From: a virus
Taxonomy: Duplodnaviria; Heunggongvirae; Uroviricota; Caudoviricetes
Direction: 5' to 3' (one strand)
Length of the DNA: 11,749 nucleotides
Virus record (IMG/VR): IMGVR_UViG_2897328257_000005
Span: 1 to 11,749 of that record
Each line of letters begins with the position of its first letter. Within the stretch, counting starts at the first letter, position 1. This document shows, in pieces, positions 3,001 to 9,000 of the stretch. A program made the position numbers.

Positions 3001-6000
3001 TTCTCTGTGGTTACTTACAGCCAGGTGATTTGGTAATCTGCATTCATGCCGTAACAACAGGTGTTCAGCGACGCTGACCACCAGCTGTTGCGACAAACGG
3101 TTATTTGCCGTTAAACTATTCATGCGTTAGTTTCTCCACAACCAGAAGCAATCGACGCCACGACGCCCGGAGCTGCACACTCGCGGGCGTTACTCTTTTC
3201 TGGAGCGCAGAAGATTTTGTAGACCAGTGCTGCATGCTCCTGGAGCTTCGAAATTGAAAGATACAGTTCGTCGTTAATTGCTGTCTTCTCATGCGGTTCC
3301 ACTACCCCATCTTCGATTGCCGAACGAATCTGCTTTGAGTAACTCCCGATCTGTTCGATGACTTCCAGCAGACGCTGGTTAATATCGGCGTTGTCCACAT
3401 CCTCGACGTCAGGAAGAGACACAAAGACGCCATTTGCAGACTGCGCCACAGCGTCAGCAATGAAGTGAGTTCCACCAGCACGTTGTAAAATCATTGCCCA
3501 TCCCAGCGGGAAAATCTGATCGCCATCTGCACGAAGGCGGTTGAATAATGCGTTCTCTGTTACATCCAGCCACTCAGCAGCTTCAGCGTAACCCCCCGGC
3601 AACGCCGCGATAGTTTTTCTGACAGCTTTCACGTACCACTCAGGCTGTTTTTCCACTTTCCAGTGATGATTACCCACGGCTTACCTCCTGTTCCTGTGGT
3701 TTAAACCCATTCTGGTTTTGGCTAGATTGAAAACGTGCCGGATAAAGAATCTGCATTTCGCTGATTTCACCCTTAAAAAAATTGGCCAGACGTTCTGCAA
3801 GATCGATAGATGGAATTTGTTCCAGTCTTTCAATACGACTCAGCGTCGCTGGATTGACCTGAACGCCCGCAGCAACATGCTGCAAAGTAAATCCGTGCGC
3901 CTTACGCACATTCCGTAATGGTGATTGCATATAACCTCCACATATTGCGTGATGAGCATATTATTTCACGCAAATATTTTGCGCAAGTTGATTTGCTTAA
4001 CGCGCAATAAAGAAATGTAATAAACGCATGAACATAGGAAATCGAGTCAGACAACTTCGCCAGGCGAAGAACATGAAAATCGCCGATCTCGCTGAAGCAA
4101 TAGGAGTGGATGCGGCGAATATCTCGCGCCTCGAAACAGGTAAGCAGAAACAATTCACTGAACAAGCCCTGAGTAATATTGCCAGGAGCTTAGGTGTTGA
4201 TATTGCTGATCTCTTTACCTCAGACCTCAAAAGTAATACTGTATGTAAAAACAGTATTAGTGAGGATGTTGCGCAGGTGAAGGATGTATTCCGTATTGAA
4301 ATGCTGGATGTCAGTGCCAGTGCGGGAAATGGCCTTATCCAGGGCGGTGATGTCATTGATGTGATTCATGCCATTGAATACAGAACTGATAATGCTGTAT
4401 CGATGTTTGGTGGACGACCAGCAAATCACATTAAAGTTATCAACGTTCGTGGGGACAGTATGTGTCCAACCATTGAGCCAGGAGATCTCATCTTCGTTGA
4501 TATCAGTATCAATCAGTTTGATGGGGATGGTATATATGTATTTGGTTTTGATGATAAAATTTACGTCAAACGACTGCAAATGATACCTGATAAACTGCTG
4601 GTAATTTCTGATAATCAGATTTACCGCGAATGGGGAATTACCAGCGAAAACGAACATCGGTTTATGGTCTTTGGAAAGGTCTTAATCAGTCAGTCACAAA
4701 CCCTTAAGCGACACAATTAACCCCCTACCTCAATATCAATTAGCCACCAGAAGGTGGCTTTTCATTACTCACCAAATTGCATATCTCGCAATAAAAACAC
4801 TTGCATAATGCGCAACTTCATTTTATCTTTCTTTCCAGACATACAAACAAGGTACTAACAAAATTTGGTTGTAACACGGCGTATGGCACATGCGTCGTTA
4901 GCGGTCTGGGGACGTTAAAGGGGACAATCCACTCCTTGCTCGGGCAAACAAACCAGGTAGCCGGAATGTGCAAGTCAATGATGATGCTGATAAGACGCCT
5001 AACCAGCGTGGCGGTTCGGTTTGACACCTGGGAAGAGACCAGGGTGCAACGATGAGGGCATTTATGGAACCGCGACAAAGTGTGGTGCCGTAACTGGCTA
5101 AGTGCTCTCAGCGTTGTGGTGAATGCGCAGGCTGATGCGCGAAAGACATTGCAGCTATTGCGGAAAAGAGCTGTTCGGCGGGGCAATTAAACGCCCGTGA
5201 GAGTCTGAAATAACCGCAAGCCGGAGATCAGCACCGGTCACCACAACAGCCACTGCTTTGGCGGTACCAGTTTGTACACTTGCTTCCGGCTGGTACCGCT
5301 CTTTTTACAAAACAGAGAAGAGCATCACCGGACGACGGGCTCATAACCCAATCCATCCGGGCGGCTGCCACCGCAGGTGTTCTTCTCTGTTTTGTGGAGA
5401 AACCAACCGACCTTGCAGGGTCGATATGATGAGGAGCAACAAAATGGCTAGCGAACGCAGTACTGATGTGCAGGCATTTATCGGGGAGCTGGACGGCGGC
5501 GTATTTGAAACAAAAATCGGCGCAGTTCTCAGTGAAGTCGCTTCCGGTGTGATGAACACGAAAACCAAAGGTAAGGTCTCGCTCAACCTGGAAATCGAAC
5601 CGTTTGATGAGAACCGTGTGAAAATCAAACACAAACTCTCATATGTTCGCCCGACTAACCGCGGGAAAATTTCCGAAGAAGACACCACCGAAACGCCGAT
5701 GTATGTCAATCGCGGTGGTCGCCTTACTATTCTGCAGGAAGACCAGGGACAATTACTGACTCTTGCCGGTGAGCCTGACGGAAAACTCCGCGCAGCAGGT
5801 CATTAATATCGTTCTTAATTAACTGATTATTTATCTCATCACTGAATATCTTAATATAGTGAGGACTTATTATGTCTCAGAACTTAGACGCAACCGCAAT
5901 TAATCAAATCCATGCCCTTATTTCTGCTCAGGGTGTTAATGAAATTATCAGTAAGATTGGTGCCGACGCAGTGGCATTACCTGAAAATTTCCGCATTCAT

Positions 6001-9000
6001 GATCTGGAAAAATTTAATTTAAATCGCTTCCGTTTCCGTGGTGCGCTTTCCACTGCCAGCATCGATGACTTTACCCGTTATTCTAAAGATCTTGCAGATG
6101 AAGGCACCCGCTGCTTTATCGATGCCGATAATATGCGTGCCGTCAGTGTGCTTAACCTGGGTACTATTGATGAACCAGGTCACGCAGATAACACCGCCAC
6201 TCTCAAACTGAAAAAGACAGCACAGTTCTCTGCTCTGTTGTCTGTTAACGGCGAGCGTAACTCCCAGAAGTCACTGGCAGAATGGATTGAAGACTGGGCC
6301 GACTACCTTGTGGGCTTTGATGCTAATGGTGACGCCATTCAGGCAACAAAAGCGGCTGCGGCAGTCCGTAAAATCACAATTGAAGCGAACCAGACTGCTG
6401 ATTTTGAAGACAATGACTTCAGCGGCAAACGCTCCCTGATGGAGTCTGTCGAAGCGAAGACCAAAGACATTATGCCAGTGGCATTTGAATTTAAATGCGT
6501 TCCGTTTGAAGGCCTGAAAGAACGTCCATTTAAATTACGACTCAGCATTATCACTGGTGATCGCCCTGTACTGGTTCTGCGCATTATTCAGCTGGAAGCA
6601 GTGCAGGAAGAAATGGCTAACGAATTTCGTGATCTGCTTGTTGAGAAATTCAAAGACAGCAAAGTCGAAACCTTTATTGGTACTTTCACCGCCTGATTTC
6701 ATTACTGCAAATGCCCCTGCGGGGGCATTTATGGAAACGTAATTAACTCAATAATCACCGGATGGTGAGGGCTTCCTTTTACCAGAATTCAGCGCGCTGC
6801 AGCGCATATACGTGGAGAACAAAATGTCATTTATTAAAACTTTTTCCGGGAAGCATTTTTATTATGACAAGATAAATAAAGACGACATCGTGATTAACGA
6901 TATCGCAGTTTCCCTCTCAAATATCTGTCGCTTTGCAGGGCATCTTTCACACTTCTACAGCGTCGCCCAACATGCGGTGCTTTGCAGCCAGCTGGTACCG
7001 CAGGAGTTTGCTTTCGAAGCGTTAATGCATGATGCAACAGAAGCGTATTGTCAGGACATCCCCGCGCCACTGAAACGCCTTCTTCCTGACTATAAACGGA
7101 TGGAAGAAAAAATAGACGCCGTAATCCGTGAGAAATACGGGTTACCCCCGGTTATGAGCACGCCCGTGAAATATGCCGATCTCATCATGCTGGCAACCGA
7201 ACGCCGCGATCTCGGGCTTGATGATGGCTCTTTCTGGCCTGTACTGGAAGGTATCCCGGCAACAGAGATGTTCAAAGTGATTCCACTGTCGCCAGGCCAT
7301 GCCTACGGGATGTTTATGGAACGTTTTAACGAGTTATCGGAGTTACGCAAATGCGCATGAATGTTTTCGAAATGGAAGGGTTTCTTCGCGGGAAATGTGT
7401 ACCACGAGATCTGAAAGTGAATGAAACAAATGCTGAGTATCTGGTGCGTAAATTCGATGAAGTACGTGCTGAGGCTCGCAACGAGGGTATTAACTATACC
7501 GCAAGCCGTCTTGCTGCGGCTTTCAATCACGGATTTATCAATAAGTCTTTACGTGAAGTTTTCGACGTTACACGCATGATTCTGTCAGCGAAAGAAGAGT
7601 TGGCTAATGAACCACACCCGATTGATGGCCTGTCCGGTGAATATGCGGAGAAATCCCTAGAAGAATGGGCGGAACAGATTCGCAAAGGAGGCAACCAGTG
7701 AGCGAAATTAATTACCAGGTACTGCGTGAGGTGGCGGAACGTGCAATTCCAGCAATGGAACGCCTGTTAATGTTGCCAGCTGATGATGATTTGTTAAGTG
7801 AACAGGAACTTAAAGATTACGGTGTGGATATTGATGCGCTCAATGCCTTCAAATTTCTGACCGAACCAGAAACCGTGCTGGCACTACTGGATGAACGGGA
7901 AAGAAACCAGCAATACATCAAACGCCGCGACCAGGAGAACGAGGATATTGCGCTTACGGTTGGGAAGCTGCGCGTTGAGCTTGAAGCAGCAAAATCAAAA
8001 CTCAACGAGCAGCGCGAGTATTACGAGGGAGTTATCTCTGATGGGTGCAAGCGTATTGCTGAACTGGAAGCGCGGGAAGTTCAATTACCGACTCGCTACG
8101 ACCTTCGATATGGACACCCGATAAATGCAGATGAGCGACAAGTCATGATACCTAAAGAAAATGGCAGTTGGCTTTACCTGATTGACCTAGAACACGCATT
8201 ACGCGTCGCTGACATTCGCATCAAAGGAGAGTGATATGGCGTTAACACACCACGAACTCTGTCAGATTGCGTACAAGTTCCTTAAGCGCAACGGGTTCAA
8301 GGTTTGCTTTCATGACCGCTTTGTTGCTGTAACCAGTACCGGAGAACAGCCAGATGCTATGGGATTCAGAAATTCAGCATCATGCCTGATAGAGGCGAAG
8401 TGTTCTCGTGCTGACTTGTTGGCAGATAGAAAAAAGCGTTTCCGTAAAAATCCCTCACTTGGCATGGGCGACTGGCGATTCTTTATTAGTGAGCCGGAAA
8501 TTATTTCAGTTGAGGATTTACCTCCCGGCTGGGGATTACTTCACGTTGTTAACGGAAGAGTACGGAAAGTACATGGATGGCCCAGGGGTAATTGCTGTTG
8601 GGGTAATCCTGACGATAAGCCATTTACCGGGAATAAGCAGGTTGAATGCGATTACATGTTATCTGCATTAAGGCGCATGGAGTTGAGAGGGCACCTTAAT
8701 GAAATATATGACGGTGTGATTGTTAATAAGAAAGAAGGAAACGCGGCATGATCACTATTACCAAAGGGCGACTGCTGACAATCAAGCAGTGGCGCGAAAC
8801 ATACGGACCGGGTAGCAACGTTGTACTGCCAGCAGAAGAAGCGGAAGAACTGGCACGGATTGCACTGGCATCATTGGAAGCAGATCCAGTTAAACGAGTT
8901 AACTCAGATCAGATGCACCGAGTCTGCTTAGAAGCTAATCGCTATTTAGATAAATATGACGCGATGGCGAAAGAGGTAAATAAGTTGCTTGGACGCATCG

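Follow-up and report, generated by a model that had tools for sequence, protein, structure and literature searches.

What does the four-gene cluster at positions 5444-7701 do for the phage that carries it, and do its genes work as one unit? An earlier note on this DNA (the window, i.e. the whole stretch of 11,749 nucleotides that was analysed) had likened the cluster to yfdP-yfdQ-yfdR-yfdS of the Escherichia coli K-12 cryptic prophage CPS-53 (KpLE1) and had proposed a role in host takeover or superinfection. We find the four open reading frames where they had been placed (Table 1), all in the same orientation and pointing to xis and int. BLASTP comparison with K-12 MG1655 gives identities of 119/120 residues for YfdP (99%), 271/274 for YfdQ (99%) and 175/178 for YfdR (98%), and the DNA is colinear with K-12 over 2033 bp (positions 5425-7457, 96.8% identity). 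CPS-53 retains the same yfdP-yfdQ-yfdR cassette as the window, identical DNA carries these gene labels in RefSeq, and 3472 of the 5426 complete E. coli genomes have a match to it. The cassette is already known: thousands of E. coli genomes carry its annotation, and the one activity studied has been published.

Homology with CPS-53 begins only 19 nt upstream of yfdP and, in the fourth gene, breaks off at codon 36-42. The gene order is that of CPS-53 yfdP-yfdQ-yfdR-yfdS-yfdT, and the spacer between yfdQ and yfdR shows 4 differences in a 161-nt alignment, the hairpin inside it being identical. K-12 has lost the pL leader, which is present in the window, whereas YfdT, YpdJ, TorI and the DUF551 part of YfdS, all found in CPS-53, are missing from the window, which has an Ead/Ea22-like gene and an Ea22-type module in their place. 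The correspondence with the K-12 proteins holds for three genes but not for the last, which had been taken for yfdS: the two proteins share residues 1-42 only (88% identity) and then diverge. The fourth protein has no DUF551 match and no coiled coil, its C terminus aligns with the ends of three Ea22-type families (phrog_614, 14548 and 368), and no YfdT is found in the whole window (tblastn E above 0.3). It is a modular protein, in which a 35-aa head stays constant and the C-terminal domain can be exchanged.

The early-left 'yfbR/yfdQ/yfdP' triplet of phages LLS (gp37-39), ST64B (gp35-37), phiNP, SfV (orf29-31) and mEp460 is the same cassette at the corresponding place in the operon, and the window holds another member of this group, with no difference in kind. 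The cassette has been reported as common in lambdoid early-left operons, in a description that gives YfdP and YfdQ without known function and from which the leader RNA is absent (PMC12315714). We read the region as a yfdP-yfdQ-yfdR-(yfdS') accessory cassette in the pL (early-left) operon of an SfV/mEp460/ST64B-lineage lambdoid prophage, with an action on host replication, and we give this reading, mode of action included, an even chance of being correct.

Table 1. Features of the pL region and the cassette (window coordinates)
Feature	Position	Strand	Description
Terminator-like hairpin	4742-4759	+	AGCCACC-AGAA-GGTGGCT then TTTTC; consensus scan; ends cI-like repressor gene (4028-4720)
OL-like operator pair	4777-4815	.	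Two perfect TTGC-N7-GCAA palindromes (4777-4791, 4801-4815); motif as at OR (3993-4007)
Upstream part of non-coding pL leader	4836-5260	+	Kept in related phages; no codon periodicity, no unusual folding
Hairpin A	5261-5308	+	GCGGTACCAG...CTGGTACCGC then UCUUUUU; intrinsic-terminator-like
Conserved structured leader RNA	5304-5398	+	19-pair basal helix bearing two apical hairpins
Apical stem-loop	5336-5349	+	CGGGCUCAUAACCC; 14 nt identical, by alignment, to anticodon stem-loop of E. coli initiator tRNA (metY)
Small hairpin C	5407-5424	+	Directly upstream of yfdP ribosome-binding site
yfdP	5444-5806	+	120 aa; precomputed Pfam PF27127; phrog_204; obligate upstream partner of yfdQ
yfdQ	5872-6696	+	274 aa; DUF2303/PF10065, 309.3 bits (cut-off 26.6), profile positions 2-269 of 269
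Conserved hairpin	6709-6730	+	AAAUGCCCC-UGCG-GGGGCAUUU; after yfdQ stop codon; 9 bp, 4-nt loop, short U run
yfdR	6824-7360	+	178 aa; predicted YfbR-like HD-domain phosphohydrolase; ATG with GGAG ribosome-binding site
Chimeric fourth gene	7351-7701	+	116 aa; YfdS N-terminal head (aa 1-42) and Ea22-type C-terminal module (aa 36-116)

The cassette consists of three separable units, namely the YfdP-YfdQ pair, YfdR and the modular small protein, and its conserved unit is the pair. A YfdP-type gene lies directly upstream of the YfdQ gene (66 nt away in the window) in 196/196 loci and 23/23 sequence clusters, which reach phages of Vibrio, Xanthomonas, Halomonas, Thalassomonas and Acinetobacter. The pair comes without any YfdR in 18 of the 23 clusters, YfdR following it in enterobacterial clusters only, so that neither YfdR nor DnaA can be required for the core function of the pair. 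YfdP matches phrog_204 with E = 1.2e-49; PF27127 is assigned to all YfdP homologues in a precomputed table. The YfdQ family comprises 1487 clusters at 50% identity. Counted by codon position among 33 relatives, variable sites number 6/6/27 in yfdP and 13/2/80 in yfdQ, a third-position bias that shows both genes to be under purifying selection. YfdQ is acidic (pI 4.97), and the 36 chains of PDB entry 9o7m ('YfdQ protein') suggest that it forms a large homo-oligomer. The AF2 model of YfdQ has a pLDDT of 78, and searches of PDB libraries returned no protein of related fold for the model of either YfdP or YfdQ. Phage recombination genes usually lie near the pair: in 22 clusters, genes at most four positions away from it encode YqaJ exonuclease (6), ERF (6), RecT (2), Rad52 (1), SSB (2) and DnaQ-type exonuclease (3).

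The H...HD motif claimed for the third gene is intact, with H50, H69-D70, E73, D78 and D119. YfdR HDATEAYCQDIPAPLK aligns to YfbR HDASEVLTGDLPTPVK, and the metal-binding residues of the HD superfamily (H...HD...D) align with those of E. coli YfbR and of Atu1052 (PDB 2gz4); the three proteins have in common an HDAxExxxxDxPxPxK block, an upstream His and a downstream Asp. YfdR is, however, only 21% identical to YfbR and scores below the cut-offs of PF12917 (24.3 versus 25.9) and NCBIfam NF003009 (19.9 versus 122); judged by its sequence, it is a relative of YfbR and not an equivalog. A further difference from YfbR is the DnaA-binding role of YfdR in K-12 (PMC4776307). The listed yfdR open reading frame, of 182 aa, starts at a GTG at 6812. 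The intact HD site may confer a weak 5'-(deoxy)nucleotidase activity. The link to nucleotide metabolism proposed in the earlier note is not supported by published results: the reported nucleotide affinities of YfdR are far below those of YfbR (Zimmerman 2008, summarised in PMC4776307) and CMP yield is unchanged by deletion of yfdR.

The published work invoked in the earlier note is rendered there correctly: YfdR is a DnaA-binding protein, and initiation is inhibited by yfdQRS or yfdQRT in multicopy (Noguchi & Katayama 2016, PMC4776307). K-12 YfdR, 98% identical to the protein of the window, contacts DnaA domain I; the inhibition occurs in wild-type, hda-185, dnaAcos and seqA cells, and extracts inhibit oriC replication in vitro (PMC4776307). 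The minimal set is yfdQ and yfdR together with yfdS or yfdT, yfdP being dispensable; the authors allow that the over-expression effect may be an artefact, and deletion of yfdQRST has no phenotype (PMC4776307). The four genes are thus not one functional unit, because yfdP is dispensable for the replication phenotype and yet YfdP-YfdQ is the sole invariant unit. The window contains yfdQ and yfdR and is missing both an intact yfdS and yfdT, so that the replication phenotype is not simply transferable. By analogy with the K-12 experiments on proteins of 98-99% identity, DnaA binding and the initiation block may nevertheless extend to this phage, with the fourth protein possibly substituting for YfdS or YfdT. 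YfdR would then bind DnaA domain I around Phe46 in competition with DiaA and DnaB and, together with YfdQ and a third small protein, would lower initiation at the host oriC during early lytic growth. Lambda P (DnaA domain III), SirA of Bacillus subtilis (domain I, Phe49), Dps and DiaA competition are similar cases, in which a protein produced in special circumstances binds the initiator and lowers oriC firing. SirA and YfdR both use the Phe hot spot of domain I, but YfdR has no sequence relation to the other DnaA-targeting inhibitors and is an HD enzyme that needs YfdQ and a third protein in vivo (PMC4776307).

Early expression of the cassette would follow from its position. Perfect matches to TTGC-N7-GCAA occur three times in the window, at OR and in the OL-like pair, and phage Ayreon has an annotated terminator at the place equivalent to the hairpin that precedes this pair. 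A candidate pL overlaps the operators (-35 TTGCAT, 4801-4806; -10 TATCTT, 4824-4829), a promoter that we infer from the operators and from these hexamers. Release of the cI-like repressor from the operators would allow transcription from pL. The earlier claim that the cluster is the first to be expressed from the left promoter stands in so far as yfdP opens the first coding unit after the OL/pL-like operators, but a non-coding leader of ~600 nt precedes it, which the transcripts would traverse before YfdP and YfdQ are made.

In the upstream part of this leader, variable sites are spread over the three codon positions (12/15/16, 33/26/32 and 20/25/23), in contrast to yfdP and yfdQ, and small-ORF annotations vary from record to record. 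This part has a folding z-score of -1.17, whereas the MFE of 5250-5446 is -85.1 kcal/mol (z = -6.97). Hairpin A is missing in some related loci because of a mosaic junction at ~5295, and, with a loop of more than 8 nt, it escaped the consensus terminator scan. The structured RNA downstream of it is co-inherited with yfdP in enterobacterial lambdoid phages and is found in mEp460, SfV, SfIV, cdtI, ST64B, phiNP and LLS. RNAalifold returns 42 pairs, 8 of them compensatory, for the leader; in the leader alignment (A9), 98.1% of cells are paired and 6 pairs are compensatory, as compared with 42-54% in slid controls. A covariance model of the RNA (R1) finds a single copy in the window, and the RNA has no Rfam match. 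The GGG/CCC pairs and the CAU triplet of the apical stem-loop are invariant in the same alignment; ARAGORN finds no tRNA in the window, the anticodon arm of tRNA-fMet alone being mimicked. In hairpin C, pair 149/160 is GC in nine sequences and AU in five.

Long structured non-coding leaders between pL and the first gene are also known from the lambda N mRNA (nutL and an RNase III-sensitive hairpin) and from the put RNAs of HK022. A lambda-type N/nut system does not fit here: the stretch of leader from pL to yfdP shows no sign of coding, a boxA-like match at 5297-5307 (CGCUCUUUUUA) is no better than chance and varies at boxA core positions in relatives, and cro overlaps the next gene, leaving no room for nutR. 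An HK022-type put antiterminator does not fit either, since the covariance model has no match in the HK022 genome and the single site in the window has no pR-side partner. LLS, which has the same leader, is without an N homologue (PMC12315714). A put-like RNA has been suggested for this phage group, which has no N homologue, and the leader RNA is a candidate for how the early operons of the group pass terminators.

The hairpin after yfdQ is real, being identical in K-12 and covarying in relatives. It is found in 21 of the 23 clusters and is annotated as a 'terminator' in phage Ayreon; in an enterobacterial alignment, 99.3% of cells are paired and two pairs are compensatory (slid controls, 30-66%). 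It is probably a leaky terminator or a 3' stabiliser. By stopping or stabilising part of the transcripts it may set the ratio of the products, with more YfdP and YfdQ being made than YfdR and the products of the genes behind it.

Several other readings of these data have to be weighed against an early-left cassette that inhibits host initiation. The pair may be a DNA-metabolism accessory complex that acts with phage recombination or replication on ends, gaps or single-stranded DNA, with YfdR and the fourth gene as passengers and the DnaA effect as a side effect of over-expression. The invariant linkage of YfdP to YfdQ across all loci and clusters, the recombination genes close to the pair and the large oligomer suggested by 9o7m argue for it, as do the reported weak MMS and H2O2 sensitivity of delta-yfdQ cells and the authors' own remark that the over-expression effect may be artefactual (PMC4776307); we consider this explanation possible, though the less probable one. 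Somewhat more tentatively still, the observations could be joined into an undescribed RNA-controlled module, in which the RNA at 5304-5398 is a new cis-acting element controlling a YfdP-YfdQ oligomer that acts on replication or recombination. The pair would be an obligate two-protein complex with unseen folds, a large oligomer carried by many proteobacterial phages, and the 95-nt three-way-junction RNA could be an N-independent processive antiterminator; alternatively, it could serve as an operator for translation or for RNase III, or as a decoy for a factor that normally reads tRNA-fMet.

Anti-defence genes are typically sited in early-left accessory regions, and the location of the cassette is consistent with a counter-defence module in which oligomeric YfdQ, YfdR or both neutralise a host immune system, for instance as a decoy or through capture or breakdown of a nucleotide signal. 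The predicted nucleotide phosphohydrolase YfdR, the acidic and probably oligomeric YfdQ, and the Tad2-like and Acb3 genes that some phages carry no more than four genes away from the pair point the same way. That association is seen in 3 of 22 clusters only, however, no experiment speaks in its favour, the proteins have no homology to any known anti-defence family and the strict linkage of YfdP to YfdQ would be left unexplained, which makes this improbable. We regard the superinfection role put forward in the earlier note, a cassette expressed in the lysogen to exclude incoming phages, as very improbable. In K-12, CPS-53 genes have been connected with tolerance of stress and with the control of a different phage, but a cassette behind OL-type operators and a terminator-like hairpin, under a repressor-controlled pL, should be silent in the lysogen. 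None of the eight proteins encoded from 5444 to 9691 matches a PADLOC-DB 2.0 model, and the pair also occurs in Vibrio and Xanthomonas phage regions that show no repressor or integrase.

Among the gene pairs without an assigned function in lambdoid and other proteobacterial phages, YfdP-YfdQ ranks with the commoner ones (~1500 YfdQ clusters at 50% identity). Its strict pairing and its recombination-gene neighbourhood can guide experiments, and YfdP, though set aside in the K-12 work, belongs in them. The third partner is swapped among natural cassettes, which makes the DnaA-inhibition model testable with natural variants such as that of the window. For terminator passage in the early operons of an N-less phage group, the conserved leader RNA offers a concrete candidate; if this is true, it would be a cis-acting element of a new kind, one that shows an exact copy (14 nt) of the initiator-tRNA anticodon arm.

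The window corresponds to the early region of a lambdoid prophage. The four open reading frames reported in the earlier note are exact in position, and the proposed likeness of the cluster to the yfd genes of CPS-53, a cryptic prophage of E. coli K-12, is borne out on alignment for YfdP, YfdQ, and YfdR, which share 119/120, 271/274, and 175/178 identical residues, respectively, with the proteins of K-12 MG1655. CPS-53 DNA is colinear with window positions 5425–7457 (96.8% over 2033 bp). Several E. coli chromosomes are 100% identical to positions 5200–7800; in strain S19-141 the counterpart of this stretch sits in a stx1a-bearing prophage, where the PGAP names are yfdP, YfdQ family, and yfdR 5'-deoxynucleotidase. 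Of 5426 complete E. coli genomes, 3472 have a match to the same stretch. The cluster is real, was rightly identified, and is already known. Across 33 related sequences, variable sites at codon positions 1, 2, and 3 number 6, 6, and 27 in yfdP and 13, 2, and 80 in yfdQ, and this third-position excess indicates that both proteins are under selection.

Features of the early region and of related loci (window coordinates unless a relative's locus is named)
Feature	Position	Strand	Remark
cro-like gene	3670–3930	−
ymfL/cII-like, Rha-type, and O-like replication genes		−
OR palindrome	3993–4007		operator-like sites in 3945–4007
cI-like repressor	4028–4720	+
OL-like palindrome pair	4777–4791 and 4801–4815		24 nt apart, directly after cI terminator
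Rejected leader ORF	4801–5055	+	84 aa
Rejected leader ORF	4818–5186	−	122 aa
Rejected leader ORFs			mEp460 gp36/gp37
Hairpin A and U run	5261–5308 (stem 5261–5299)	+	terminator-like, in pL leader upstream of first gene
Leader RNA	5304–5398	+	19-pair basal helix, conserved hairpin, variable hairpin
yfdP	5444–5806	+
yfdQ	5872–6696	+
yfdR	6824–7360	+
Chimeric fourth gene	7351–7701	+
Ead/Ea22-like and DUF551/DUF4222 genes		+	after cluster
Excisionase	10175–10429	+
Integrase		+	cut by window end at 11749
Partial copy of leader element	relative's locus L199, 1346–1574		Klebsiella phage GZ7
tRNA gene in place of leader element	relative's locus L168, 3433–3506
tRNA gene in place of leader element	relative's locus L170, 3425–3506

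Annotated phages and viral contigs yielded 196 loci with YfdQ relatives, which group into 23 clusters at 90% identity and include proteins as little as 26% identical to that of the window; a first viral-contig scan gave only 99–100% identical loci, and three further scans used distant YfdQ queries. A YfdP homologue lies directly upstream of YfdQ on the same strand, at a gap of 3–219 nt, in 196 of these 196 loci, which were located via YfdQ, include 90 near-identical ones, and were subjected to mechanical ORF calling. A YfdR-like gene follows downstream only in five of the 23 clusters, all enterobacterial and with at least 56% identity. The conserved unit of the cassette is the obligate YfdP-YfdQ pair. 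When Pfam families were counted up to four genes from the pair in 22 clusters (the window's own being left out), we found YqaJ exonuclease and ERF (6 genes each), DnaQ-type exonuclease (3 genes), RecT, SSB, and Tad2-like proteins (2 genes each), and Rad52 and Acb3 (1 gene each). The Stx2 phage TL-2011c has the gene order gam-recT-exo-ssb-yfdP-yfdQ. It has been argued that the pair does not stand in for a recombinase, given its presence alongside complete Rec modules (PMC12315714).

At 50% identity and E up to 0.001, the YfdQ family falls into 1487 clusters; almost all full-length members listed have 265–285 aa. In the AF2 model of YfdQ (pLDDT 78), the segment 172–197 is of low confidence, and several of its residues are invariant or nearly so. 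The model returned no convincing fold match in the structure libraries searched, both of which lack PDB 9o7m. This entry, titled 'YfdQ protein' (E = 1e-44 to the window YfdQ), is the sole solved relative; its sequence is 98.8% identical to that of Xanthomonas phage MET23-P3 (MET23-P3/Usme/Tabio group), and we found no paper describing it. It contains 36 identical chains, a count that suggests that this YfdQ relative is a large homo-oligomer. The AF2 model of YfdP (pLDDT 68) is made up of a single long helix plus a three-strand sheet and has no fold match in the libraries searched, and YfdP is absent from the PDB, also in a profile search.

The fourth gene had been equated with yfdS. This assignment does not hold, as the match to YfdS is confined to residues 1–42 (88%) and DUF551 is missing. 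Residues 36–116 instead match the C-terminal ends of PHROG families 614, 14548, and 368, and the N-terminal part of PHROG 368 is matched by the neighbouring Ead/Ea22-like protein. We classified the gene after yfdR in the 90 near-identical E. coli-type loci: it is of the K-12 YfdS type in 52 and of the window type in 7, a PAPS-reductase-like gene takes its place in another 7, and several other loci combine the same 35-aa head with other C-termini, one of them joining head, coiled coil, and the C-terminal module of the window. Because the head is shared and the C-termini differ among loci, we regard the fourth gene as a mosaic of a head and an exchangeable domain, a likeness to Ea22 (PMC10834534). 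The window contains no counterpart of YfdT, YpdJ, or TorI. With YfdT lacking and YfdS reduced to residues 1–42, the published minimal set for inhibition of initiation (yfdQ and yfdR together with yfdS or yfdT) is incomplete here.

The HD motif noticed in the third gene is confirmed: the block HDATEAYCQDIPAPLK aligns with HDASEVLTGDLPTPVK of YfbR, and the His and Asp that flank it line up with Atu1052 (PDB 2gz4). YfdR scores under the curated cut-offs set for the YfbR families and, judged by sequence, is a YfbR relative and not an equivalog. The published work on DnaA binding by YfdR and inhibition of initiation by yfdQRST is that of Noguchi & Katayama 2016, in which yfdQRST was found as a multicopy suppressor of hda-185, wild-type, dnaAcos, and seqA cells all showed inhibited initiation when given extra yfd copies, YfdR-DnaA binding depended on Phe46 in domain I, and YfdR moderately competed with DiaA and DnaB (PMC4776307). 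Gene deletion was without effect, the effect of over-expression might be artefactual according to its authors, and YfdR's affinities for nucleotides lie far below those of YfbR (PMC4776307). A metabolic-engineering study found the CMP yield unchanged by yfdR deletion. For YfdR, the functional reading follows the published one and would not be transferable to the window as such: the third required partner is replaced, so the K-12 phenotype cannot simply be carried over.

The hairpin described at 6709–6730, between yfdQ and yfdR, exists, with a 9-bp stem and a UGCG loop, and is the same in K-12. Of the 23 clusters, 21 have a stable hairpin behind the yfdQ stop codon, and several of these show clear U tracts. 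In an alignment of 17 enterobacterial sequences, pairing is kept in 99.3% of cells, compared with 30–66% when the partner is slid as a control, and two pairs have both partners exchanged (A-U to U-A; G-C to C-G). The U run behind the hairpin is short (UUUAU), and a consensus terminator scan made no call at this position; we therefore read it as a putative leaky terminator or 3' stabiliser, which would fit its candidate role in setting the ratio of the two genes. A second small hairpin is seen in the same spacer at 6755–6772 (+; CACC-GGAU-GGUG), and its counterparts in relatives have other stem sequences (CGCC...GGCG).

Several other sites were observed in the window. Rfam matches above the gathering score place a C4 antisense RNA at 2575–2662 (−; 82.4 bits) and isrK at 2687–2763 (−; 57.7 bits), both within a 383-aa ORF (1972–3123) annotated elsewhere as Rha-family regulator. 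The 5' end of this ORF is probably an over-call, and an immI-like isrK/C4-antirepressor unit is present. The stretch from the cassette to xis (7665–9691, +) looks decayed. At the identical locus of S19-141, PGAP annotates an Ead/Ea22-like gene, one hypothetical gene, and two DUF551 genes, all of them as partial or frameshifted; in the window, a 185-aa ORF (9134–9691) matches only the first 16 DUF551 positions, at its very end. Positions 8236–8751 (+) encode a basic protein (171 aa, pI 9.0) with no Pfam, NCBIfam, or PADLOC match, in which a PD...(D/E)xK-looking string read by eye (PDAMG...IEAKC) might mark a nuclease. Eleven N in a row occupy 843–853, inside a minus-strand ORF (519–920).

Just three perfect TTGC-N7-GCAA palindromes occur in the window, one at OR and two forming a pair that overlaps plausible −35/−10 hexamers and likely marks OL/pL. 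No ORF with codon periodicity was found from the candidate pL to yfdP, and small-ORF annotations in this leader disagree between annotators; on both grounds we rejected the small ORFs as genes. The cluster is thus, as had been proposed, the first coding unit of the predicted pL transcript, whose start would lie at ∼4836, though behind a leader of ∼600 nt. The superinfection role suggested for it is unlikely, given the OL-like operators upstream and a PADLOC search of the eight proteins between 5444 and 9691 that returned no matches. Folding of 4836–5260 is not unusual (z = −1.17). Within this part, 4890–5090 (+) is as conserved as coding regions (33 relatives; 2–8 variable sites in each 50 nt), without codon periodicity or unusual folding. 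Hairpin A is absent from loci with a mosaic junction at ∼5295.

For the 190 nt directly before yfdP, the folding energy is −85.1 kcal/mol, compared with −55.6 ± 4.2 kcal/mol for shuffles (z = −6.97). Even phages with only 57–70% YfdQ identity retain the leader RNA located here at 79–91% DNA identity. RNAalifold predicts 42 pairs, 8 of them compensatory; a trimmed alignment has 98.1% of its cells paired, with 6 compensatory pairs, and its slid controls reach 42–54%. Rfam returned no match in 4700–7800 at E up to 1, and the covariance model that we built for the leader finds one copy in the window.

We considered several identities for this RNA. An HK022 put element was rejected, as the covariance model has no match in the HK022 genome, and so was nutL, for which the lone boxA-like match is at chance level and the core is variable among relatives. 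The element occurs in phage LLS, which has no N homologue and for which a put-like RNA was guessed at by its describers (PMC12315714). It is not a tRNA gene according to ARAGORN; its apical stem-loop CGGGCUCAUAACCC (5336–5349), an initiator-tRNA mimic, matches the anticodon arm of the E. coli initiator tRNA metY (tRNA-fMet) at all of 14 nt. Another YfdPQR cluster has a real tRNA gene at the site of the element upstream of yfdP (Gly-CCC or Asn-GUU, ARAGORN), and the late-operon leader of phage GZ7, downstream of gene Q, has its partial copy after tRNA-Asn and tRNA-Arg, directly behind the latter, a location suggesting that the element may precede other genes as well. The leader RNA may act as an antiterminator or as an operator for RNase III or for translation, or may be a tRNA relic kept in another capacity.
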